From contig JABMQJ010000004.1 of NCBI GenBank assembly GCA_013203315.1, positions 1 to 39,938 on the forward strand: a stretch of DNA of 39,938 nucleotides, written 5' to 3'. Below the pieces are notes generated by a model, which ran no database searches, was not told where the DNA came from, and worked only from the letters and a program-made list of their open reading frames with translations. The translations under genes and the position numbers were made by a program. Of the stretch, positions 1 to 36,843 are shown piece after piece; the stretch's first letter is position 1, and every line of letters begins with the position of its first letter. The DNA is from Candidatus Omnitrophota bacterium. Lineage in GTDB: Bacteria > Omnitrophota > Gorgyraeia > JABMRN01 > RBG-13-46-9.

Positions 1-27
1 GCTCTAACCAAATTGAGCTATGGCCCC
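1..27 (-). tRNA. 5' portion of tRNA(CAT) (Met/Ile2), running off the window edge; probably the restored gene at the island junction
   Basis: Minus strand GGGGCCATAGCTCAATTTGGTTAGAGC = acceptor 5' strand plus D-arm; identical to 5982-6008. Anticodon inferred from the other copy; 3' half not visible. Confidence 0.7.
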
Positions 28-31
28 AGAG

Positions 32-1111
32 TTATAACGTTTTATTTTTCAAAGAGTTATGAGAATCACGTAAACTATCGAAAAAGTTTGTTTTACTCGT
101 TGGTGTCCAAAAAGTGTCCATCTGAAGTCCAAAATTCTCCATTGCTCGGCGTTTATGGTCTCGTGACAAGTGAGAATACCTCAGCGTCATTTTGATGTCC
201 TTATGGCCCAACAGTTCTCTCAAAGTATTTAGTTCACCGCCTGCCATCATAAACTGAGATGCGAAAGTATGCCGCAGGTCGTGAAATCGAAAGTTAAGTA
301 TACCAGATTTGTTTAACGCTTGCAAGAAACTTTTATCCAATTTCCCGTATGGTTTACCGTTCTTCCTGCAAAAGATAAAAGGGCTATTAGGGCGTTTCTC
401 TGTTTTTATAAAGATTTGCTTTACGGTATCGCACATTGGGACTTCTCGTGCCTCGTGGTTCTTCGTTCTTAATACATATATAATACCTTTATTTATATCT
501 ATGTCTCTCCATTTCAAATTGAGAATCTCTCCCCTTCGCATTCCTGTGGATACTGCGACAACCAGAACGGGCTGTAGTGTGGCGTTCGAGTTATCGATGA
601 GAGTTTTTATTTCTTCCTTTTCGAGGTAGCGAAGGCGAGCGTTGTTTTCCCGAAGTTTCTTCACCCTATGGGCTGGATTGATTTCAACCTTCCCCCACTC
701 TATTGCTTTGTTAAACATATGTTTTAAACTAGATAATTCTCTATTAACCGTTGCAGGTGAGACGCTGCTTAATCTCTTTGCCTTATATTGCTCAACTTGC
801 TCCTGAGTTATTGTATGCAATCTTGCGTTGCCGAAAAACTCTTTTGAACGCCTTTGATGAAGTAAGTCAGACCTACGCCAGTCTCTCTTGTTTGGTTTAG
901 CATGAAGTTCAATATAAAGGTCACACAGTTCATAAAAGGTTGTTTTGGATGCTTTCTTAATATCAAGGAAGCGATTTTCTGCCATGGCGAGTTTTCGTTT
1001 GGCAAGCACACTTTCGGCAAGTTTTCGACTTGGGCCAATCTTCTCTCTTTTGCGCTTGCCATGAGCGTAATAATCAATATAATAACTTTTTTCTTTTTTA
1101 TAAATGCTCAC
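32..1111 (-). CDS. phage-type tyrosine recombinase/integrase
   Basis: Catalytic R (TGMRRGE), K (RTKN), HxxR (HDLRH), H (LGH), Y (RYSH); N-terminal arm-binding-like segment (YYIDYYAHGKRKREKIG) and SAM-like core-binding domain (SPATVNRELSSL); GTG start behind AAGGAG. Confidence 0.97.
   Translation of the reverse strand: MSIYKKEKSYYIDYYAHGKRKREKIGPSRKLAESVLAKRKLAMAENRFLDIKKASKTTFYELCDLYIELHAKPNKRDWRRSDLLHQRRSKEFFGNARLHTITQEQVEQYKAKRLSSVSPATVNRELSSLKHMFNKAIEWGKVEINPAHRVKKLRENNARLRYLEKEEIKTLIDNSNATLQPVLVVAVSTGMRRGEILNLKWRDIDINKGIIYVLRTKNHEAREVPMCDTVKQIFIKTEKRPNSPFIFCRKNGKPYGKLDKSFLQALNKSGILNFRFHDLRHTFASQFMMAGGELNTLRELLGHKDIKMTLRYSHLSRDHKRRAMENFGLQMDTFWTPTSKTNFFDSLRDSHNSLKNKTL
101..120. repeat. 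tandem TGGACAC direct repeat pair, putative integrase arm-type binding site (inside int 3' end)
   Basis: tggtgtccaaaaagtgtcca; 19/20 identical to 5828-5847 and similar to 9579-9598. Confidence 0.65.
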
Positions 1112-1158
1112 CTAAACATCTCCTTTACTTTGGTGGTACTTTCAGAACCGTTCCTTAT
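1108..1158 (-). repeat. cassette-junction site J1 (integrase-proximal) plus a degenerate second site ~31 bp upstream
   Basis: Minus strand AAAGTAAAGGAGATGTTTAGGTGA (1108-1131) is a 24-bp exact match to 2592-2615; TAAGGAACGGTTCTG (~1143-1157) resembles the J6 variant TAAAGGAACAGTTTA. Confidence 0.85.
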
Positions 1159-1406
1159 TTTCCAATTTCCTTAAGATCTCTATCTGGCAAATAAAGCATT
1201 AACAGCCCGATAATAATCCCTCCAATAGCCAACGGCAAATGATTGTCTTGAAAAATTAACGTGTCAAAGTAATCAAGAACATACCAAATACCTCGCCAAA
1301 TTAGAACTATGGCAATAACAACAGTAATGTTCTTAGCAAAATAACGAATCGTTTCAAAGATATTCTTTCTCATTATTATCCTCACCTTTCTCTCAAATAC
1401 CTGCAC
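1155..1406 (-). CDS. small 2-TM membrane protein (start may be ATG at 1373)
   Basis: ORF track; two hydrophobic segments, WRGIW motif; AGGTGAGG RBS before ATG 1373. Confidence 0.75.
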   Translation of the reverse strand: MQVFERKVRIIMRKNIFETIRYFAKNITVVIAIVLIWRGIWYVLDYFDTLIFQDNHLPLAIGGIIIGLLMLYLPDRDLKEIGK

Positions 1407-1430
1407 CTCTGCTAACCTGTATCTCCAAAA

Positions 1431-1462
1431 TAAAAAGCAACCCCGTTTTATACAGGATTGCT
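1431..1462 (-). terminator. intrinsic terminator within the array
   Basis: AGCAATCCTGT-ATAAA-ACGGGGTTGCT stem-loop (with G:U pairs) followed by a T run on the minus strand. Confidence 0.7.
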
Positions 1463-1507
1463 TGTCAAAAATTCATTATGCTTTCGCCATATTTTCTTCT
1501 CCATCAT
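1448..1507 (-). CDS. 19-aa mini-ORF MMEKKIWRKHNEFLTSNPV (truncated cassette or leader peptide)
   Basis: Same GGAGGAATGATGGAGAAGAAA start as 2007-2237; stop lies in the terminator loop. Confidence 0.35.
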   Translation of the reverse strand: MMEKKIWRKHNEFLTSNPV

Positions 1508-1540
1508 TCCTCCTATTTAAACTGCTCTCTTACTTTGGGG
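1492..1540 (-). repeat. cassette-junction site J2
   Basis: Minus strand CCCCAAAGTAAGAGAGCAGTTTAAATAGGAGGAATGATGGAGAAGAAAA; 1492-1522 is 30/31 identical to 2222-2252. Confidence 0.85.
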
Positions 1541-1936
1541 CAACATAAACTTTTTCTCATCATAGGTTTTGATTGTGTCGAGTGTTAAAAGTTTTTTAGA
1601 TTTTATCCATACAAAAATTGGTATTACCATTCCAGGAAGAATTAATCCCCCCGTTAGAATGATTTGACATACAATAAAAATCCAAGGCTTAATCTTTATT
1701 ATATCATTTAATTTTAATATTTTTGTCGAGCTATGTAGATACCAAAGAAAAATTATATATATTACTCCAATAAGAAAACCTATGGCAACTATAATCGAGT
1801 CGCCTTTGATACTACCAATACCTTTTGTGTGTAAATTTAAAAATGCCGGCCGAGAAAGTATCCCTACAAGTTGATAAGTTACGATAATTATAAACAAAAT
1901 CTTAAAGGTTTTAATTTCTTTGGGTATTTTTGCCAT
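1517..1936 (-). CDS. hypothetical membrane protein (3-4 TM)
   Basis: ORF track; hydrophobic segments; C-terminus PQSKRAV* is read through site J2. Confidence 0.75.
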   Translation of the reverse strand: MAKIPKEIKTFKILFIIIVTYQLVGILSRPAFLNLHTKGIGSIKGDSIIVAIGFLIGVIYIIFLWYLHSSTKILKLNDIIKIKPWIFIVCQIILTGGLILPGMVIPIFVWIKSKKLLTLDTIKTYDEKKFMLPQSKRAV

Positions 1937-1947
1937 ATTTATCCTCT

Positions 1948-2026
1948 TATCTAAACATCTCCTTTATTCTTGTGCTCCATAAACTGTCGCACTACTTTGG
2001 GACGGGTCATCTAAACACCTTCTTCA
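1948..2026 (-). repeat. cassette-junction cluster J3: three stacked sites
   Basis: GTTTA cores at 1952-1956, 1980-1984 and 2012-2016; tactttgggacgggt (1993-2007) is identical to 3154-3168. Confidence 0.8.
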
Positions 2027-2237
2027 ACTTCTTTGGGTCTAAATAATTGTTTATAAGATACCATAAGCACGTACTGCAATCTTTAATGGGTAGTGTTCTT
2101 TTAAACAAATCTGAGCAATTAGCAATGAACCAACACCTATTGCCATAATTGTGTTTATAGACTTTGCACTTATTTCGTTTTGAAACGGAGCAATGCCAGA
2201 AGTCCCAGCACTTTTTAGACTTTTTCTTCTCCATCAT
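2007..2237 (-). CDS. small Cys-rich two-CW-type domain protein
   Basis: CWDFWHC...CKVY...GNRCWFIA...CSTC pattern. Confidence 0.75.
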   Translation of the reverse strand: MMEKKKSKKCWDFWHCSVSKRNKCKVYKHNYGNRCWFIANCSDLFKRTLPIKDCSTCLWYLINNYLDPKKLKKVFR

Positions 2238-2267
2238 TTCTCCTATTTAAACATCTCCTTTGCTTCG
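2222..2267 (-). repeat. cassette-junction site J4
   Basis: Minus strand GAAGCAAAGGAGATGTTTAAATAGGAGAAATGATGGAGAAGAAAA. Confidence 0.85.
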
Positions 2268-2286
2268 TTTTGTAGAGAGGGTCGTA

Positions 2287-2595
2287 TTATTTCCTTTTCT
2301 TTAGCTTCTCCTTAACTTTTATGCTTGGATAGACAAAGATCGTAAAGATTGTAAGGAGTATAGCGAAAGGTATGATTAAGGGTATAATCGCACTAATGAG
2401 CCATGATAATAAAGTTAAAACAATCAATCCTATAAAAGAAGTAACAAGAAAATTAGAGAAATGTTCTCCATATCCAATATGTTTTTCTTGCTTCACCTTT
2501 TTACTTGGCGTAGTATTAATCAGTGGCTTTCGGCAGCGTAAACAGACTTCCCAAGTATCATCATAGGTTTTGTCACACTTCGGACACTTCTTCAC
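2287..2595 (-). CDS. zinc-ribbon (CPKC...CLRC) membrane protein
   Basis: Two CxxC motifs followed by two TM segments; GTG start supplied by site J5. Confidence 0.8.
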   Translation of the reverse strand: MKKCPKCDKTYDDTWEVCLRCRKPLINTTPSKKVKQEKHIGYGEHFSNFLVTSFIGLIVLTLLSWLISAIIPLIIPFAILLTIFTIFVYPSIKVKEKLKKRK

Positions 2596-2624
2596 CTAAA
2601 CATCTCCTTTACTTTATAGGACGG
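2592..2624 (-). repeat. cassette-junction site J5
   Basis: Minus strand CCGTCCTATAAAGTAAAGGAGATGTTTAGGTGA; contains the stop of 2609-3130 and the RBS/start of 2287-2595. Confidence 0.9.
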
Positions 2625-3130
2625 AGGCATATTTTCAAATGTTCCGCAGGGAAAATATATGCCCAAAACTTTTCATAAGTCATTGGGAAAAGATTAAACA
2701 GTTTATGCAACAAAATTCTTCTGAAAGCCCGATGAAAAGTAATCTCTCTCTTTAATAACTTAAATTTCTTCCCCGTCATCCATTTAATTATTCCGTTTTC
2801 AATGTATCCATCAAAAGCAAAATAGTTAAACCTTAGTTTGTGTTCGGGAACATTTGCACACCACGATGTGTGATGAGGAACTTCTATATAGATGTCGCCA
2901 TCTGGGTCACATATTCTATGCAGTTCAGACATAACGGGAGATAAATCATTTAGATGTTCTAAGATATGATGGCAAACGATTTCCTCAAATTGATTATCTT
3001 TGAATGGCAGAGGTATTATATTCAAATCGTGCACAACATCTGGACTATGTTCTGGGCAAATGTCTAAAGTTATTGAATCTGCGGTTTCTCTGCCTGCACT
3101 TCCCAATATAAGCTTTTTCTTCTCCATCAT
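2609..3130 (-). CDS. class I SAM-dependent methyltransferase (Methyltransf_11-like)
   Basis: LILGSAG motif I, DVVHDL, LPFKDNQFEEI, HILEHL, ELHRI. Confidence 0.85.
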   Translation of the reverse strand: MMEKKKLILGSAGRETADSITLDICPEHSPDVVHDLNIIPLPFKDNQFEEIVCHHILEHLNDLSPVMSELHRICDPDGDIYIEVPHHTSWCANVPEHKLRFNYFAFDGYIENGIIKWMTGKKFKLLKREITFHRAFRRILLHKLFNLFPMTYEKFWAYIFPAEHLKICLRPIK

Positions 3131-3168
3131 TCCTCCTGCTTAAACTGTTCCTTTACTTTGGGACGGGT
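3121..3168 (-). repeat. cassette-junction site J6
   Basis: Minus strand ACCCGTCCCAAAGTAAAGGAACAGTTTAAGCAGGAGGAATGATGGAGA; contains the stop of 3153-3932. Confidence 0.9.
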
Positions 3169-3932
3169 GAGGTAGCTGGAATTATAAACAAAAATAACAC
3201 GGCAAAAGCTATCAAATATACGACAGAAATAATCAACCCTGCCATAGCTAACGATTTACCCCTTAATAACCCATTGCTTTGTTTGATGTCATACAATACT
3301 CTGCCACATACGTAAAAACAGATAATTTGCCCTATAACAGGGACAACAAATGCAACAATTGATAATATTAAAGCAAAAATAGAGGCTCCTGCCAAACGAG
3401 GTTTTCCTTCTTGACGAATTTTTTCAATAGCTTCTTCTACTTCTTTGCTTATAACAAATGTTTTGCAAGCTCTATCGTGCAGCATTCTCCTGTATTTATC
3501 AGTTCTTCCAATGATGGCTGATATAATCAGAACCAAAAAACCGATGTTTTCTAATCCATAAAGTATGTAAAACAAAGACCTTACAAATGCTTTTTTATAT
3601 CCTATGATATTACCCTCTACATCGACAACCTTTACACCCATGATTTTCTTACCGGGGGTTTGGCCTGTTTTTCCAATAAAATAAGTAAAGTACGATAGGA
3701 TGATAAACCACAAGATTATTTGAAGAGGTATAATTTTCTTTATACTTTCATTCTCAAATATTTGCGGAAGGCTCGAAAAATTTCCTCCCGATATTATAAA
3801 GAAATATACAAATAAGACTACAAGAGTCGGCAAAAGCAATACAAATCCGTCAGCAATGTATGCTATGGTTCTTTTCCATAATTTTCCTGTTTGCGTAAAT
3901 TCTCCTTGAAACAATTTTGATTCCTCCATCAT
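3153..3932 (-). CDS. RDD family membrane protein with C-terminal DUF4190-like domain
   Basis: WKRTIAYIAD, GQTPGKKIMGVKVV, MLHD RDD motifs; C-terminal ALILSI...GKSLAMAGLIIS. Confidence 0.9.
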   Translation of the reverse strand: MMEESKLFQGEFTQTGKLWKRTIAYIADGFVLLLPTLVVLFVYFFIISGGNFSSLPQIFENESIKKIIPLQIILWFIILSYFTYFIGKTGQTPGKKIMGVKVVDVEGNIIGYKKAFVRSLFYILYGLENIGFLVLIISAIIGRTDKYRRMLHDRACKTFVISKEVEEAIEKIRQEGKPRLAGASIFALILSIVAFVVPVIGQIICFYVCGRVLYDIKQSNGLLRGKSLAMAGLIISVVYLIAFAVLFLFIIPATSPVPK

Positions 3933-3960
3933 TCCTCCTTTGGTAAACTACCTTCTTCCT
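3924..3960 (-). repeat. cassette-junction site J7 (degenerate, array-distal)
   Basis: Minus strand GAAGAAGGTAGTTTACCAAAGGAGGAATGATGGAG; right half conserved, left half weak. Confidence 0.6.
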
Positions 3961-4267
3961 CAAGTATAGTCTTGAATATCTGGCCAAGCTCAAGGCCGAT
4001 GTAGTCAGGGTTCTGGGCTAACACGTTTTTTAGAATGTATACGTATTCAGGAGAGTTTAATTTGACCTTCACACCTTGTGCCTTGTATCGGTTAATGATG
4101 TTCTCTACTAACTGGATTTGTTCATAATCGTGGAGGTTTAGAAAGGCTTCGGTTGAGGTCTTAGCGTTATACTGTTTGAGAATTCTTTCTCTATCTTCTT
4201 GGGTTTGGGCAAAGGTGAGAGAGGAGATTAAAAGCAGGGCTATAGATATGACTATATACTTCCTCAT
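3929..4267 (-). CDS. secreted hypothetical protein (start MRKYIV at 4267)
   Basis: Signal peptide ending TFA-Q; AAGGAG RBS and promoter upstream of ATG 4267. Confidence 0.8.
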   Translation of the reverse strand: MRKYIVISIALLLISSLTFAQTQEDRERILKQYNAKTSTEAFLNLHDYEQIQLVENIINRYKAQGVKVKLNSPEYVYILKNVLAQNPDYIGLELGQIFKTILEEEGSLPKEE

Positions 4268-4294
4268 ACACCCACTCCTTTGTAGGGTAGACAT

Positions 4295-4323
4295 ATTATA
4301 ACATTACCATGTGTTATTGTGAA
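4295..4323 (-). promoter_or_regulatory. sigma70 promoter facing into the cassette array
   Basis: TTCACA-17 bp-TATAAT; homologous block at 11090-11118. Confidence 0.75.
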
Positions 4324-4364
4324 CTAGGAAATGGGTAGGTTATCTTTTGGCTCTTTAAGAACTA

Positions 4365-5525
4365 TTAGTCAGCCCAGAACTCGTCGTAGAGGCTTGAGCC
4401 AGTAAGCTCGTCGTATAAATCAGAACTATATGTTATCTTTCCTGAAGAATTATAAAGTGCCCATTGCTCCTCTTTGGGTTGTATAGCATTTTCGAGCTTA
4501 TCAATTATGGTTGTATCGCCACCTATAGTTGGTATTACCTCTACCTTAAAGATGTATTCGTCATAAACCTTTTCACCATTCTCGTCTCTCTCAGGCTGTA
4601 TTACGCCAAGAGTTATTATCCATCCACCCTCTTCATCTTCAACAACTTCCAGAGCTTTGCTATTAACTTTCTTTTTATCAGAACCAGGCGCTAATAGAGC
4701 ACTGAGAGCGTTTTTGGCACTTTTTTTGGCCTGGGCTTCGTTCTTGGCAGGGTCAGCGGTAAGGTATGGGGGGTCGGTTGGAACGTCTGATATAACCCAC
4801 TCTGGATTACCATATGCGACACCATGGTGGTTATTGCCCGATATGTCATTAACTGTATCTCCACTACCTTCGTCAAAGTTCCAGCCAGCAACCAAATTTG
4901 ACTCTGAGCCGATAGCCCGTTGATACATCCAATCATTTATTTCTTGCTCAGTCATTCCGTAGTTCCAAAATCTTAATTCATCCATATAGCCATTAAGACC
5001 ACTGCCTAAGCCGCCCCCAGAATCATTTCCAATCTGAAGAGGTGTTTCTAAATCAACTACGGCACCGTCATAGATTCCTTCTGTAATGGTTTGAGGGGCA
5101 CCATCAATCAATATGCTCCAATCGCTAGTTGCTATTCCACGCCTTACCACAGCTATATGATACCAGGTGTCGAGAACGGGCAAATCCCATGTGCACTTAA
5201 CATAGCTTTCATACGGTGGACTCTCCATCGAACCAAAAAAAAGATAGGGTGTTGCTGCACCTTGAGAATGAAACATTCTCATTCTTTGACTAGAATCAAC
5301 CCATTGTCCCAAAATACCAGAATTCCATGAAGACGGCCCTGGAAGGCTGCTAAAATTAATCCAAAAATCTATTGTAAAATTGTTCATCCCAAAAGCCCAA
5401 TCGCCACTATCAGGGACCTCGATATAATCGTCTAATGCATCAAAGCTCATCGCATAGTTATCTTGTGCATACACATTAACTCCAAACAAAAGAACCACCG
5501 CTAATACTAAAATTAATCTTTTCAT
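4365..5525 (-). CDS. secreted LamG/concanavalin A-like (pentraxin-type) domain protein
   Basis: Signal peptide; FTIDFWI, WYHIAVV, LQIG, GYMDELRFWN, WNFDEGSG motifs. Confidence 0.9.
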   Translation of the reverse strand: MKRLILVLAVVLLFGVNVYAQDNYAMSFDALDDYIEVPDSGDWAFGMNNFTIDFWINFSSLPGPSSWNSGILGQWVDSSQRMRMFHSQGAATPYLFFGSMESPPYESYVKCTWDLPVLDTWYHIAVVRRGIATSDWSILIDGAPQTITEGIYDGAVVDLETPLQIGNDSGGGLGSGLNGYMDELRFWNYGMTEQEINDWMYQRAIGSESNLVAGWNFDEGSGDTVNDISGNNHHGVAYGNPEWVISDVPTDPPYLTADPAKNEAQAKKSAKNALSALLAPGSDKKKVNSKALEVVEDEEGGWIITLGVIQPERDENGEKVYDEYIFKVEVIPTIGGDTTIIDKLENAIQPKEEQWALYNSSGKITYSSDLYDELTGSSLYDEFWAD

Positions 5526-5630
5526 ATCAAGCCTCCATTAAATAAAAAAAACAACCATTTTTCTGGTTGCTTAACGTTATTATAATACACTGCCCCATAA
5601 TTCATAAACCACTCCTTTGTGGTAGGTATT

Positions 5631-5660
5631 ATTCTACGCTCATGTCATAGTAACTGTCAA
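5631..5660 (-). promoter_or_regulatory. sigma70 promoter at the distal end of the island
   Basis: TTGACA-18 bp-TAGAAT followed by a CTACCACAAAGGAGTGG leader similar to the one at ~4272-4290. Confidence 0.65.
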
Positions 5661-5827
5661 GGGGTTTCTAAAAAAGTGGTATCGGCGGGGAAATCGATTC
5701 TAATACATAGATATAGTGAGCAGTTAAGTGGGGTGGCTACCCTTTTTTACTCCAGCTAAAGACTTCCTTTTGTATGTATGCTACAGGAATGGTTTACCAA
5801 AATCTGGCTTCGGCGTGGAGTGCTATC

Positions 5828-5965
5828 TGGTGTCCAAATAGTGTCCAGTCAGCATCCAAAAAGGCCCTAATTGACCCTAATTGAGCCTAATTGAAAATTG
5901 TCGTAAGTCTTTATGGAATAACGTAATTAGGTGAGATTATTGAAGTTACAGAAATTGGCTTTTTG
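5828..5965. repeat. island end (att arm): TGGACAC pair plus three tandem 10-bp CCCTAATTGA repeats (5865-5894)
   Basis: Seen directly; the whole block is paralogous to 9579-9720. Confidence 0.75.
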
Positions 5966-5968
5966 GGC

Positions 5969-6008
5969 TTATGAGTCAGATGCTCTAACCAAATTGAGCT
6001 ATGGCCCC
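5969..6008 (-). tRNA. tRNA(CAT) 5' half fragment, interrupted after the anticodon loop (att site)
   Basis: GGGGCCATAGCTCAATTTGGTTAGAGCATCTGA-CTCATAA then GCCCA instead of the expected TCAGA; no T-arm; lacks the initiator GGG/CCC stem, so elongator Met or Ile2. Confidence 0.85.
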
Positions 6009-6084
6009 AAATTCGCGAAGCGAATTTGATCCTGCGGAATGTTGCAAATCCAACCCATTGGAGGATTTGTTATTCCGAAGGACC
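6009..6084. repeat. palindromes adjacent to the tRNA fragment
   Basis: CAAATTCGC-GAA-GCGAATTTG hairpin followed by a nested CGGAAT..CAAATCC....GGATTTG..ATTCCG hairpin. Confidence 0.55.
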
Positions 6085-6233
6085 TTAAGATTTGCCGGGG
6101 GACACCTTTAAGTTCAGATTCGTGGACAGATTGAACGGAGAATCGCAAACGGTACAAGATCGTACAAAATTATACATCAGATAGGAATTGCAAGGCAGGT
6201 GTAAGTTTACTGCGGGAACCATACCGAATAAGA

Positions 6234-7835: not shown

Positions 7836-9232
7836 CGTGTTTGAACCCGGCGTTTCTCCATCAAATATAAAATCCTTTTGGAATCCCGCAGTGGCACTGA
7901 ATCCCGCATGATAAAGTATTGCTCAAATTCCCTTTCGAATATTTGTTGTGTGTAATCTGAGAAGATGTCTTCCCTAGTTGACAGAAGTTTCTGTGCCTGA
8001 TAATCGCTTTTTGGAATAAATTCAATGATAAGCAATCTGCAGACCCTGCTGAAAAAACTGGCTATTTTATTAAATGGCAAGTTGTTGGAAATCGCCAGAT
8101 GATGGATTAATGCAAGAGCTAACGCAATATCCGCGGGCCCACGCTCTATCAGGGAATTTCTTTCCTGATTCTCCCAGCCGATGCCAGGACTCGGATTAGT
8201 AATATCAAGTAACAATGGAAAATTTCTGGTTTCATTCTTATTTTTACATTCGAGATAATTTTTCTCAACAGCGCTACTATCAATGTCAAAAGAGACGGTC
8301 TCTATCCCCCTGCTGCTTGAAATCCGACTAAACACTCCTAAGTTGGCTCCAAAATCCCAAACTGTCTTGGGGTTTAACTTATTCAAGAACTGATCTATAA
8401 CTTTTTTTTTGTGGTTCTGTGCTTCTTGAGAATAGCTCGTTTCATTATAGTAATCGGACCACCCTGTGCGCGGGGAACGCCATTTAAGCTTCTGTATGGC
8501 AGATTCCAAATTATCAATGATTCCAAGCAAAGCCAGTCGGTTTGTTTTATATCGTGCAGCATGTAGCCGTCTATCAGCAAAATAGCCTTGGCTAGCAGCG
8601 TGCATGTGAATATGAGAAAAAATAAAAAATGAAAAACGGGAACAAAAAGGTAACAGGCGACTGGCCAGATCTAAGGGGATTCCGTCCAGATATATTCGCA
8701 GCAAATGGGACAGACGAATATCGGTATAGCACATTATCGCCAATGGAGCAAGAAAGTGCTGACAAAATTGCCTGTAAGCAACCCACGGCTGTCCTTCGCG
8801 GTACCTCTCAAAAGAAAGCGTATCGATAAATATAGGCTTACCATCCCTAAATTGTATATTGTAGGCACTGCAGTCTTTAAGGGATAGATCGAATTCAAGC
8901 GCTTTCTTTTGAATTTTGAGAGTTGTCAAAGCAGCATCTTTAAATTGGCTGAAACACCATTCATACGGATATGATATAAACGGTATCCGTTCGGGCATTA
9001 TTATCTTATATGCCTTCTCGTTATTCAAAAAATCAATATCAACCTCTTTATGCGGTATCAACAGACCGGCAGCCGTAAGCGATTCATAAAGTCCGGAATT
9101 CATTAAATAATCGTAATTTTTTTTGTAGCATATATTTATTTGGCGATAAATTTCTCCATTTAGATGAAAAAGAAAACCGCTTGGATCACGAAATGAACTT
9201 GGCATACGTTTGTAGGTTTCTGCTTTATTCAT
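7832..9232 (-). CDS. NoeA-like protein: kinase-like N-terminal domain fused to a SAM methyltransferase
   Basis: SFRDPSG start, ISYPYEW, LKDCSAYNIQF, FIDTLSF; C-terminal VWDFGANLG motif I and LALIHHL. Confidence 0.85.
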   Translation of the reverse strand: MNKAETYKRMPSSFRDPSGFLFHLNGEIYRQINICYKKNYDYLMNSGLYESLTAAGLLIPHKEVDIDFLNNEKAYKIIMPERIPFISYPYEWCFSQFKDAALTTLKIQKKALEFDLSLKDCSAYNIQFRDGKPIFIDTLSFERYREGQPWVAYRQFCQHFLAPLAIMCYTDIRLSHLLRIYLDGIPLDLASRLLPFCSRFSFFIFSHIHMHAASQGYFADRRLHAARYKTNRLALLGIIDNLESAIQKLKWRSPRTGWSDYYNETSYSQEAQNHKKKVIDQFLNKLNPKTVWDFGANLGVFSRISSSRGIETVSFDIDSSAVEKNYLECKNKNETRNFPLLLDITNPSPGIGWENQERNSLIERGPADIALALALIHHLAISNNLPFNKIASFFSRVCRLLIIEFIPKSDYQAQKLLSTREDIFSDYTQQIFEREFEQYFIMRDSVPLRDSKRILYLMEKRRVQTR

Positions 9233-10153: not shown

Positions 10154-10221
10154 GTCACTTCTCCCTCACCGTTATAAATGATGCAAGTCTGATTGTTTTT
10201 TGTTTTGCGGATAAGTGTCAT

Positions 10222-10416
10222 TCAACAACTCATCAATAGTATGAAACTTAACAATACTGCTATCACGGCAATTACTATAATTATTCTTGGCGTAGGATAT
10301 TTTATCTTGCCCATAAACCCTATACTACGTTTCAGATTTTCTCCACAGTAAAGACACAGCAATGATTCATCATCATAGGTAGGCTTTCCGCAGTGTGGGC
10401 AAATATATTCGGACAT
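10222..10416 (-). CDS. small zinc-ribbon membrane protein
   Basis: CPHC...CLYC then one TM; RBS from the junction-type site. Confidence 0.8.
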   Translation of the reverse strand: MSEYICPHCGKPTYDDESLLCLYCGENLKRSIGFMGKIKYPTPRIIIVIAVIAVLLSFILLMSC

Positions 10417-10440
10417 TTACCTAAACATCTCCTACTTGTT
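10417..10440 (-). repeat. orphan cassette-junction site J8
   Basis: Minus strand AACAAGTAGGAGATGTTTAGGTAA(ATG); contains the stop of 10432-11064. Confidence 0.75.
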
Positions 10441-11064
10441 TCTACCTGAGTCCTTCTTAAGGTCTGCAAGAAACGCAGAATCAACATTTCCTCCCAGCGC
10501 TTCTACTTTATGAACATCCTCCCAACATTTGTCATATTCTTTTCTATGGAAATACATAAGTGCCCGGTTATAATAAGGAAATAGTAATTCGGGATTGATT
10601 TGTATTGCTCTATCAAAATCAGAAAGAGCTTGGTCTATATTGCCTTTATGATAATAAGCAAGCCCTCGGTTATTATAGGCAATAATATAATCTGAATCAA
10701 TCTCTATTGATTTATTAAAATAAGCGATGGACAGATCGACAGACCCGAGGGTTTTGTAGATATTCCCCAATCCATTATAGGGCTCGGCATAATTAGGATT
10801 AATTTCAATTGCTTTGTTGTAGTCAGCAATGGCAGCATCAAGATTACCCTGATCCTCGTAGGCGGCACCCCGGCCATAGTAGGCTTCGCTATGGATAGGG
10901 TTAGACTTGATTGCCTTGTTGAACTCGGCAATTGCCTCCTCATGCATGCCTTGTCTTCCATAAATTATGCCTTTTTGGAAAGCCTCTTTATCCGCTTCCT
11001 GGGCATTGGCATAGAAAGCCACTATTAGCGATACTGCCAATACTCCTAGAGAATGTTTATACAT
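10432..11064 (-). CDS. secreted TPR repeat protein
   Basis: Signal peptide and repeated AY..RG..Y...G....AI.DY.KAI.INP units. Confidence 0.92.
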   Translation of the reverse strand: MYKHSLGVLAVSLIVAFYANAQEADKEAFQKGIIYGRQGMHEEAIAEFNKAIKSNPIHSEAYYGRGAAYEDQGNLDAAIADYNKAIEINPNYAEPYNGLGNIYKTLGSVDLSIAYFNKSIEIDSDYIIAYNNRGLAYYHKGNIDQALSDFDRAIQINPELLFPYYNRALMYFHRKEYDKCWEDVHKVEALGGNVDSAFLADLKKDSGRNK

Positions 11065-11089
11065 ACCTACTCCTTTTTAGAATAGGCAT

Positions 11090-11118
11090 ATTATATCAAT
11101 ATTTTACGGGAGTGTAAA
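11090..11118 (-). promoter_or_regulatory. sigma70 promoter (paralog of 4295-4323)
   Basis: TTTACA-17 bp-TATAAT then AAGGAG RBS. Confidence 0.75.
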
Positions 11119-11134
11119 CTGAGAAGTGGGTAGG

Positions 11135-11983
11135 TTATCTTTTGGTTCTTTTTCGCCTAAAAAAGCCTGCTCCTAAGAGACCTGCTCCAAATAGAAGTAT
11201 GGTAGAGGGTTCGGGGATAACAGTGTTGGGAGGAATAACAATGCTCTGTTGCAGGACAATGCGATCAGAGAATGCGCTGGAGAGATACCTTCTTTTTGAT
11301 ATATCCATAGGTACTTGGTCATTCGCAGAATATCCGAGAGATAACATTGTCTCCGTTCCGTCCGGAAAGGAGGAACTAAGTAGAGCCCTATCAATTATTC
11401 CTTCGAGAATATAGGTATCGCCTTCGCCTGGTTCCAGCTCTCCTGCATTCTTATAGGATACATCGCTGGATCCTTTATTCGTACCGTGCATACTTACTGG
11501 GTAGCCATACTGCGTAAGCCAGGCAACGCTTGGTATCTTTGATGGGTAGCCAAACATCGTGATCCATGTAGGATCCTCTAACAATGGAACTTGCTGAATA
11601 CCGGCTGAAGGTGATAAAGGAGTAATATCCAATCCAAAATTATACTGTCCATCCGTTCCATATATATCAATCTTCAAGTCTGACGCATTCAGACTTGTTT
11701 GAGCTTGGGAACTTACCAAAGCAAAATACATGGAATTCGCGTCCATGTCCAGATATAATGCCTCGTGATCATCTCCTAGACTGCCCCATATCGGGCCCCC
11801 GGTATATGTAACGCCGTCTTGCACAGTATGTTTTGCTGTAGGACTGTCCGGATCCCAGTCGACAAAGGGTGTTACCCCCCAATCGCCCAGGTCGCCGTCT
11901 ATAGCATATGCAAATGCCTGCGTACTGCCTGCAGATAACAATAACATGAAAGCTAACATTATCGAAAGAAATATTTTATTCAT
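11135..11983 (-). CDS. PEP-CTERM sorting domain protein
   Basis: Signal peptide; C-terminal VIPEPSTILLFGAGLLGAGFFRRKR. Confidence 0.95.
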   Translation of the reverse strand: MNKIFLSIMLAFMLLLSAGSTQAFAYAIDGDLGDWGVTPFVDWDPDSPTAKHTVQDGVTYTGGPIWGSLGDDHEALYLDMDANSMYFALVSSQAQTSLNASDLKIDIYGTDGQYNFGLDITPLSPSAGIQQVPLLEDPTWITMFGYPSKIPSVAWLTQYGYPVSMHGTNKGSSDVSYKNAGELEPGEGDTYILEGIIDRALLSSSFPDGTETMLSLGYSANDQVPMDISKRRYLSSAFSDRIVLQQSIVIPPNTVIPEPSTILLFGAGLLGAGFFRRKRTKR

Positions 11984-12056: not shown

Positions 12057-12242
12057 GAATTATTGGCTGCTTTTGAATACGATGTGTATGACAGACCGTG
12101 ACAGGGCTGTTGTAGAAATGCGTGCGCAGTGTTTAATTTATTGAGCAGAACTTGGCGCCCAAATCGCGCCCGGTTTAAAATCGAGAAGATCCTAGAGAAC
12201 CCTGATTGAGCTTAATTATTATTCAGGTAGGTAAATGCCTGG

Positions 12243-36670: not shown

Positions 36671-36843
36671 CTAGCGGAATGAGAGGGTATTAGTGAGGGC
36701 GGCATGGCACAATAACGGCGGAGCTCTTTCTTCTTCAAAAAATTGTAGTAAGCTGAATGTATATATTTGTAATTATGGAAAGAAAGGATCTCCTATAATC
36801 GGCAAAAAAAGCCGCCCTCACTAATACCCTCTCATTCCGCTAG
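36671..36843. mobile_element. MITE-like element with 33-bp perfect terminal inverted repeats
   Basis: 36671-36703 CTAGCGGAATGAGAGGGTATTAGTGAGGGCGGC is the exact reverse complement of 36811-36843; no transposase-sized ORF inside. Confidence 0.7.

Follow-up and report, generated by a model that had tools for sequence, protein, structure and literature searches.

The 39,938-nt stretch of DNA analysed here (the window) is the start of contig C2 in the 1.5-Mb genome (G000; 42.9% GC) of a Candidatus Omnitrophota bacterium. It opens with an array of eight minus-strand genes, which run head to tail from position 4294 to position 32 and are joined by a recurring junction motif, the subject of this report together with the tyrosine integrase that ends the array. 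In order, the genes encode a secreted-looking protein (121 aa; 3929-4294), a membrane protein with RDD and DUF4190 domains (259 aa; 3153-3932; PF06271, E = 5.5e-26), a class I S-adenosylmethionine-methyltransferase-like protein (173 aa; 2609-3130; PF08241, E = 1.3e-8), a Zn-ribbon membrane protein (102 aa; 2287-2595), a Cys/Trp-rich (CW) protein (76 aa; 2007-2237), a 139-aa membrane protein (1517-1936), a protein with two transmembrane segments (2-TM; 83 aa; 1155-1406) and the integrase (359 aa; 32-1111; PF00589, E = 9e-33; PF24624 Int_N, E = 6e-12). The CW and 139-aa proteins are without family assignment, and the RDD protein has no match at E ≤ 1e-30 in 300 other genomes of the class (0/300). 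An earlier note on this DNA had described seven small genes head to tail ahead of a tyrosine integrase, with the same site of about 25 bp at nearly every junction. The gene order and the recurrence of the site are confirmed, but the length is not.

The 19-mer AAAGTAAAGGAGATGTTTA has 5 matches in the window at up to 3 mismatches (1113, 1952, 2248, 2597 and 3141), all on the minus strand, against 0.04 expected from shuffled windows, and 0/100 shuffles reach 5 matches. Allowing 4 mismatches, or applying a position weight matrix (PWM), also recovers the copies at 1518 and 1980, while those at 2012 and 3944 are degenerate. At three junctions (1492-1539, 2222-2269 and 3115-3162) a repeat search extends the shared sequence to 48 nt, with 81-90% identity. 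The PWM, 30 nt long and built from 27 copies, was applied with a threshold of 14 bits and gives 18 matches in the whole genome. As many as 16 of these fall in two loci, C2:1108-3165 (plus 10417-10446) and C23:36602-47351, and hence the motif is not the general ribosome-binding site of the organism. An exact 24-mer is present in 4 copies of this genome. Our survey also shows the motif in 12 of the 14 genomes of the family and in 27 of 121 genomes of the class (E ≤ 0.001), mostly as one or two copies, with the highest count in the present genome. Viral contigs searched with a degenerate 25-mer gave 0 matches, by which a phage origin of the motif is rejected, and no description of the junction motif turned up in those portions of the literature that our search returned.

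Some other elements were observed near motif copies. The second motif locus (G000:C23:37478-40251; L001:7479-7579, 8168-8231 and 10161-10252) contains two c-di-GMP-I riboswitches and one fluoride riboswitch, and in a sister species a c-di-GMP-I riboswitch (L065:7040-7129) heads a motif-bearing cluster. Gene ends in G000:C23 also carry locus-specific repeats (L001:9955-10035, 10877-10932 and 12165-12195), which comprise a block ACGGTTCTCG..CCGATCTTACA and a terminator hairpin with a common 21-nt tail.

Within the array, the motif between the 2-TM gene and the integrase (J7; 1108-1137; 43.3 bits) is intergenic. The upstream open reading frame (ORF) stops 20 nt before it, and the GTG of the motif is the integrase start. 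At J6 (1513-1542; 31.3 bits) the 139-aa gene reads into the motif in frame 3 (...PQSKRAV-stop), and a second Shine-Dalgarno (SD) sequence followed by ATGATGGAGAAGAAA comes after it; J4 (2243-2272; 28.1 bits) is intergenic and of the type with a second SD and MMEKKK. Between these two lies a triple junction (1947-2042), in which a diverged in-frame tail of the CW protein (...YLDPKKLKKVFR-stop) is followed by relic copies at 1975-2004 and 1947-1976 (16.3 and 35.0 bits); the relic pair is homologous to C23:41400-41460. The methyltransferase reads into J3 (2592-2621; 35.0 bits) in frame 2 (...LRPIK-stop), and here the GTG starts the Zn-ribbon gene. The RDD gene likewise reads J2 (3136-3165; 34.8 bits) in frame 2 (...TSPVPK-stop), where frame 1 would give SYLTRPKVKEQFKQEE-stop. 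Only the right half of a junction, an SD with ATGATGG, is found at the end of the gene for the secreted-looking protein (3929-3962). Outside the array, a degenerate copy (10417-10446, minus strand; 20.3 bits) precedes a 64-aa Zn-ribbon gene that carries the motif also in G003 and G013.

Elsewhere in the class, outside this family, the motif forms the 3' end of a gene for a membrane protein family with four transmembrane segments (4-TM), which has the N-terminus MxKKRSxG and the C-terminus FYLTRPKVKEQF(K/R). Read in this native frame, the sequence CTC ACC CGC CCC AAA GTA AAG GAG CAG TTT AAG plus a stop gives the tail LTRPKVKEQFK. The tail residues T, R, P, K, K and F are invariant among 9 aligned 4-TM proteins, while in 11 in-frame tails Arg is written with four different codons, and Pro, Lys and Glu with two each. 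This synonymous variety indicates that the tail peptide is under selection at the protein level. Three array proteins have diverged in-frame tails, KVKEKL, KKLKKVFR and RDLKEIGK; the 2-TM protein ends in ...YLPDRDLKEIGK, and the Zn-ribbon protein ends in ...YPSIKVKEKLKKRK with its diverged tail at 2301-2319. The 139-aa membrane protein was also considered as a member of the 4-TM family and rejected (hhalign probability 0.1%).

The same nucleotides appear to serve initiation of the next gene. The Lys-Glu codons AAG-GAG double as an SD sequence 8 nt ahead of a GTG or ATG, and the stop of the motif overlaps or abuts this next start (GTGA, ATGA). An SD in the end of the upstream gene with a stop overlapping or near the next start is seen at the window junctions, in G117, in G008 and in C23. 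In G117 the tail stop overlaps or abuts the starts of large ORFs, which we take, by eye from their first residues and with no family search, to be gatA, gatB and ribBA. Two paralogous 4-TM genes with the tail module stand among apparent gatC, gatA and gatB there (L152:1901-6490; G117:C34), and a third such gene stands ahead of the apparent ribBA (L156). The layout of G117:C34 suggests that small membrane genes have been inserted into housekeeping operons.

Each copy of the motif contains stops in all three frames (TAA, TAG and TGA). In the present genome most copies are out of the native frame or intergenic, and only one ORF has a canonical in-frame tail. For instance, the frame-2 TAA ends the RDD and methyltransferase genes, a frame-3 stop ends the 139-aa gene and other copies are intergenic. 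Among 36 PWM matches the upstream ORF stops 9 times at +10, once at +12, 4 times at +23, 7 times at +27 and once at +36; in the remaining 14 it ends no more than 31 nt ahead of the motif. The upstream open frame spans at least 48 codons in 28 of the 36. Because these stop positions vary, we describe the module as a stop in any frame combined with an SD and a GTG.

The motif shows no sign of folding. RNAalifold found no consensus pair in 27 copies, and 8 junction stretches, each strand folded as single-strand DNA, scored z = -0.21 to +1.28 against shuffles, with no hairpin. Such lack of secondary structure fits an initiation region and not an attC site, and the earlier note was right that no attC hairpin is present. 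The TAAA-N7-TTTA inverted repeat that it proposed has just 4 bp and no support from the folds. The 16S 3' end, sought for pairing with the SD, is absent from the assembly.

The integrase and its surroundings have a structure of their own. On sequence grounds, we identify window 29-5968 (5.9 kb) as an ordinary tRNA-integrated island at tRNA-Met, of the minority type with a 5' fragment. Beside the integrase, the contig start cuts the 5' part of a tRNA-Met(CAT) gene (1-28, minus strand), the regenerated target gene. These 28 nt are repeated exactly at 5982-6009 and match without difference the opening 28 nt of the intact tRNA-Met behind the integrase homologues in G008 and G009; ARAGORN makes no call on the fragment, which is truncated. 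The far end of the island is marked by a displaced tRNA-Met 5' fragment (5969-6008, minus strand), a 40-nt repeat that reaches from the 5' end to the anticodon loop CTCATAA. A pair of arm-type repeats, TGGACAC-N4-TGGACAC, lies inside the 3' end of the integrase gene (101-120) and again at 5828-5847, both on the minus strand. The distal arm (5904-5968, minus strand) is 83% identical to that of an island in G008, whose arms carry GGTCACAA-N3-GGTCACAA at both equivalent positions. We take this co-variation of the arm repeats as a signature of arm-type integrase-binding sites, and the repeats are therefore putative binding sites of the integrases of both islands.

In G008, which belongs to a different genus, an integrase with 76% identity (G008:C52:23100-24176) lies directly upstream of intact tRNA-Met and tRNA-Val genes, and the same 40-mer recurs 23.5 kb upstream and brackets a 23.5-kb island (C52:674-24183). 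An integrase with 50% identity occupies the same position in G009 (C145), and at 6 of 11 further loci with integrase homologues a same-strand tRNA gene (Met, Lys or Thr) starts 8-75 nt past the match. The window and G008 islands have the integrase and the 65-nt distal arm in common and no cargo, so that the suggestion of variable content in related islands is borne out. Contigs from four runs break at the island repeat; among these contigs none bridges an empty site or a circle, and a joint 120->5898 in an X4 contig has only 20 nt on one side, too little for interpretation. As the earlier note held, the integrase is not of the IntI type: the integron-integrase models TIGR02249 and PRK15417 give 71.6 bits against a cut-off of 265 and 38.1 against 435, respectively, and the protein is below the cut-offs of the Xer and IntI equivalog models. 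We picture a lambda-type tyrosine integrase that would recombine at a core within the anticodon loop of tRNA-Met, guided by the arm-type repeats on both arms; the incoming island would provide a new tRNA 5' half and leave the displaced one at its far end.

Several observations separate the motif from this integrase. Of the three PF00589 genes in the genome, two are Xer-like and the third is the island integrase; C23 has none of them and holds 8 of 15 matches to the motif model. A close integrase homologue is present in only 3 of 14 family genomes, fewer than have the motif. The enrichment of the motif beside homologous integrases that the earlier proposal implied is not seen: the motif model has 0 matches in the 11 loci with homologous integrases (L067-L077, up to 10 kb on each side where the contig allows). 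Conversely, a tblastn search of 26 motif-bearing loci (175.6 kb), in which the integrase and the two Xer proteins were the queries, gave matches only in L059 and L157, and the tyrosine recombinases in these loci are those of the G008 island and, in convergent orientation, of G081. The three motif copies inside the G008 island are 12-13 kb from its integrase. At L157:2326-3446 (G081:C75) the recombinase, 28% identical to the window integrase, points against the motif end of a 4-TM gene. The integrase-less motif locus, the spread of the motif over the class and the island's own att (attachment) core and arms together indicate that the motif is not tied to the island integrase, and an integrase-driven 'integron without attC' is not supported.

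Cassette-like shuffling of motif-bounded units is nevertheless real in a descriptive sense. A 316-bp unit, consisting of a 94-aa gene with a motif on each side, is 87-88% identical in G011, G013 and G003, and in G011 no similarity is detectable outside the unit, the flanks being unrelated. The 94-aa gene has four different downstream neighbours across six contexts, the sixth of which is without a clear neighbour. Another unit spans 176 bp, includes a conserved 48-aa ORF and matches a metagenome contig at 97% identity, while the other stretches of that contig matching contigs of this genome are only 65-69% identical. The Zn-ribbon gene occurs with its motif and promoter element at another chromosomal locus in the sister species (G001), a 14-kb metagenome contig carries one array of 7 motif copies, and related islands hold unrelated cargo. 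Both sides of every unit carry the motif, which blurs the crossover points. The integron-like system described earlier hence survives in part: units recur in unrelated contexts, but neither the link to the integrase nor the role of the site as a recombination site is upheld.

A module with ORFs like a permease, two thioredoxin-like proteins and CcdA was also observed at the second motif locus (L001:12221-14724; G000:C23:42220-44723). It is 91% identical to G003, a different genus, and only 83% to two sister-species copies, which suggests, from these identities, a recent transfer.

The remaining features of the island and the window concern its expression and assembly. A LamG/concanavalin-like secreted protein (386 aa; 4365-5525, minus strand; PF13385, E = 3e-18) is island cargo upstream of the array. 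As had been claimed, a promoter-like site TTCACA-17-TATAAT (4323->4295) points into the array; 11 of 12 positions match, and its -10 is TG-extended. Together with a 39-nt upstream element (4318-4356) it makes up a minus-strand segment (4295-4356) with a paralogue at 11070-11151, upstream of another motif-containing operon. Thus the 39-nt element with its -35/-10 promoter (window 11058-11151 and 4295-4356) heads two motif operons, with a third copy in G001:C46, and may be a shared regulatory site. A terminator-like hairpin within the array (1435-1463, minus strand; a 12-pair stem and then a T run) follows a 19-codon ORF (MMEKKIW...; 1450-1507), which is preceded by a full junction, ends at the hairpin and may be the remnant of a deleted gene. 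At 36743-36839 lies a repeat of about 100 nt that recurs at or near many contig ends of this genome and of G001, and is probably a dispersed element that breaks the assembly.

Taken together, we incline, with little more than even confidence, to regard the motif not as the substrate of the integrase but as a portable module for gene ends and translation restart, which belongs to a pool of small accessory genes in this class of Candidatus Omnitrophota and here sits on a tRNA island with different att sites. In its native frame the module encodes the ...YLTRPKVKE(Q/M)F(K/R)-stop tail of the 4-TM family. A ribosome that ends the upstream gene could restart on the next one by means of the AAG-GAG sequence 8 nt before its GTG or ATG, and any gene joined upstream would end inside the module, whatever its frame. 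The three-frame stops fit out-of-frame and intergenic copies that still feed the next start codon. We infer from the sequence a role of the module in translational coupling. The cassette-like reshuffling would likewise come about by ordinary recombination, aided by the 30-50 nt of shared sequence at the junctions.

Some findings weigh against this interpretation. Coupling alone leaves the near-identity of out-of-frame and intergenic copies across genera unexplained, and junctions with a second SD partly lose their own SD, yet keep the flanking AAAG...GTTTA boxes. The motif-bounded units are strongly conserved (97% over 176 bp and 87-88% over 316 bp, versus 65-69% for other matching stretches), which points to active exchange, perhaps beyond ordinary recombination. 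Moreover, both assessable islands with this integrase, those of the window and G008, carry motif-bearing arrays, and the more distant integrase of G081 (28% identity) abuts a motif copy.

Among the rivals, the explanation that survives best is that the motif is a site-specific recombination site used by the island integrase, by the two Xer-like proteins or by some further enzyme. Gene-plus-motif units would then be cut out and inserted as on an integron-like platform that lacks attC hairpins, which is the idea of the earlier note without its choice of enzyme. This explanation would account for units in different contexts with homology ending at the motif, for the direct orientation of every copy with the genes, for the patchy copy number across the class (0 to 15 per genome) and for the 7-copy array on the 14-kb metagenome contig, as well as for the arrays on both islands and for the integrase gene starting at the motif, exactly where its homology to G008 ends. 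However, the motif lacks a consistent link to any recombinase gene, the core and arm set of the integrase are different and well defined, the inverted-repeat arms are only 4-5 bp long without a hairpin, and copies occupy orthologous positions in different genera. The coding and ribosome-binding explanation is already sufficient, and we therefore consider a recombination site unlikely. The contigs of the four runs show no recombination between motif copies beyond joints that the paralogous C23 locus explains (a joint 1133->2222 and loose ends at 1108 were traced to it), although contigs cannot exclude rare events. A joint that goes back, 6300->4318, is the 39-nt paralogue at 11113. In its boldest form this explanation would make a module of about 35 nt the crossover site of an undescribed cassette-exchange system, by which a class of Omnitrophota would move single small genes among operons, islands and genomes with a recombinase that need not be linked to the array. 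Such a site would also supply the coding tail, the stops in three frames and the ribosome-binding site, which would make every insertion non-polar; we find this proposal as a whole unlikely.

The persistence of the AAAG and GTTTA boxes where the SD has decayed could instead reflect binding by a regulator that acts in trans after transcription, such as an RNA-binding protein or a small RNA, with the motif as its operator in a regulon of small accessory genes. Nucleotide conservation independent of the reading frame and the position of motif operons near shared promoter elements and c-di-GMP riboswitches are in line with this idea. Nevertheless, Rfam (window 1-6200, E ≤ 1) returned no family for the junctions, no partner is known, and in most class genomes the motif is one or two copies at the in-frame end of one protein family; an operator thus seems improbable to us. 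Regulation of the CsrA type in particular is rejected, as no CsrA gene was found in this 97% complete genome.

Least probable is a recoding signal, in which a -1 slip at C_CCA_AAG-TAA (frame 2) would add VKE(Q/M)F(K/R) and end at the TGA over the next GTG. The heptamer CCCAAAG is prone to -1 slippage, 9 of the 36 copies have frame 2 as their reading frame, with the TAA right after AAG, and by a slip the RDD protein and the methyltransferase would regain the tail (...PKVKEQFK and ...RPIKVKEMFR, respectively). However, the heptamer, counted by eye in 13 of 27 aligned copies, is missing in half of them, frame-3 and intergenic copies are left unexplained and no stimulatory structure lies downstream. 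The RDD gene was also rejected as a frameshifted tail-bearing gene, because 21 of the RDD homologues listed from elsewhere end just past the last helix and none has the tail.

If the portable gene-end and restart module is the correct reading, the window holds an ordinary tRNA island of the rarer 5'-fragment type and the 'integron without attC' falls away. One short sequence would then serve as protein tail, universal stop, ribosome-binding site and shared homology, reused at many accessory-gene junctions of an uncultured phylum. Small genes could join operons without polar effects, apparently the gat and rib operons too, and the module would be a compact natural 'insulator plus restart' part. 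If the motif were a recombination site after all, it would represent a new cassette-exchange system.

Among known systems, the island corresponds most directly to the tRNA islands collected in Islander. The integrase adjoins the regenerated tRNA gene, the opposite end carries a displaced piece of that tRNA in the same orientation, the presumed crossover centres on the anticodon loop, both arms have arm-type repeats and the cargo varies between related islands. The present island differs by its position upstream of the tRNA, with the 5' half as the displaced piece, and by an integrase that closes the cargo array and has its start codon inside a junction motif. Islander contains 159 islands with a 5' fragment versus 3760 with a 3' fragment (PMC4383910).

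With integrons, the array shares co-oriented, unrelated small genes, mostly without promoters of their own and each followed by a conserved site; units that recur in different contexts; and one promoter that faces the array. However, the integrase is not of the IntI type and stands at the promoter-distal end, co-directional with the array and not at its head, with the promoter-like site 3.2 kb away. An integron attC site is an imperfect palindrome of 57-141 nt whose single strand folds into a hairpin, whereas the sites here are about 30 nt, unstructured and partly coding, and they occur without a nearby integrase.

Short conserved sequences at gene boundaries with apparent exchange of modules are also known from mosaic phage genomes, which have conserved boundary sequences, and from Acinetobacter plasmids, in which pdif modules are flanked by Xer sites. 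Unlike these, the present motif has no phage context (0 matches in viral contigs), and its sites are direct and not alternating. An Xer/dif site is 28 bp long, with XerC and XerD arms around a 6-bp spacer. The motif shows no convincing likeness to a dif consensus, but that consensus itself has no genome match at up to 4 mismatches and only poor ones at 5, which leaves no usable dif site for comparison.

Finally, the junctions resemble those of translationally coupled operons: the SD sequence AAG-GAG lies in the tail of the upstream gene, the spacer is 8 nt, the stop overlaps or abuts the next start and there is little structure. What distinguishes them from ordinary coupled junctions is that one near-identical module of 30-48 nt is found at many unrelated junctions, across genera, and in any reading frame or in none.

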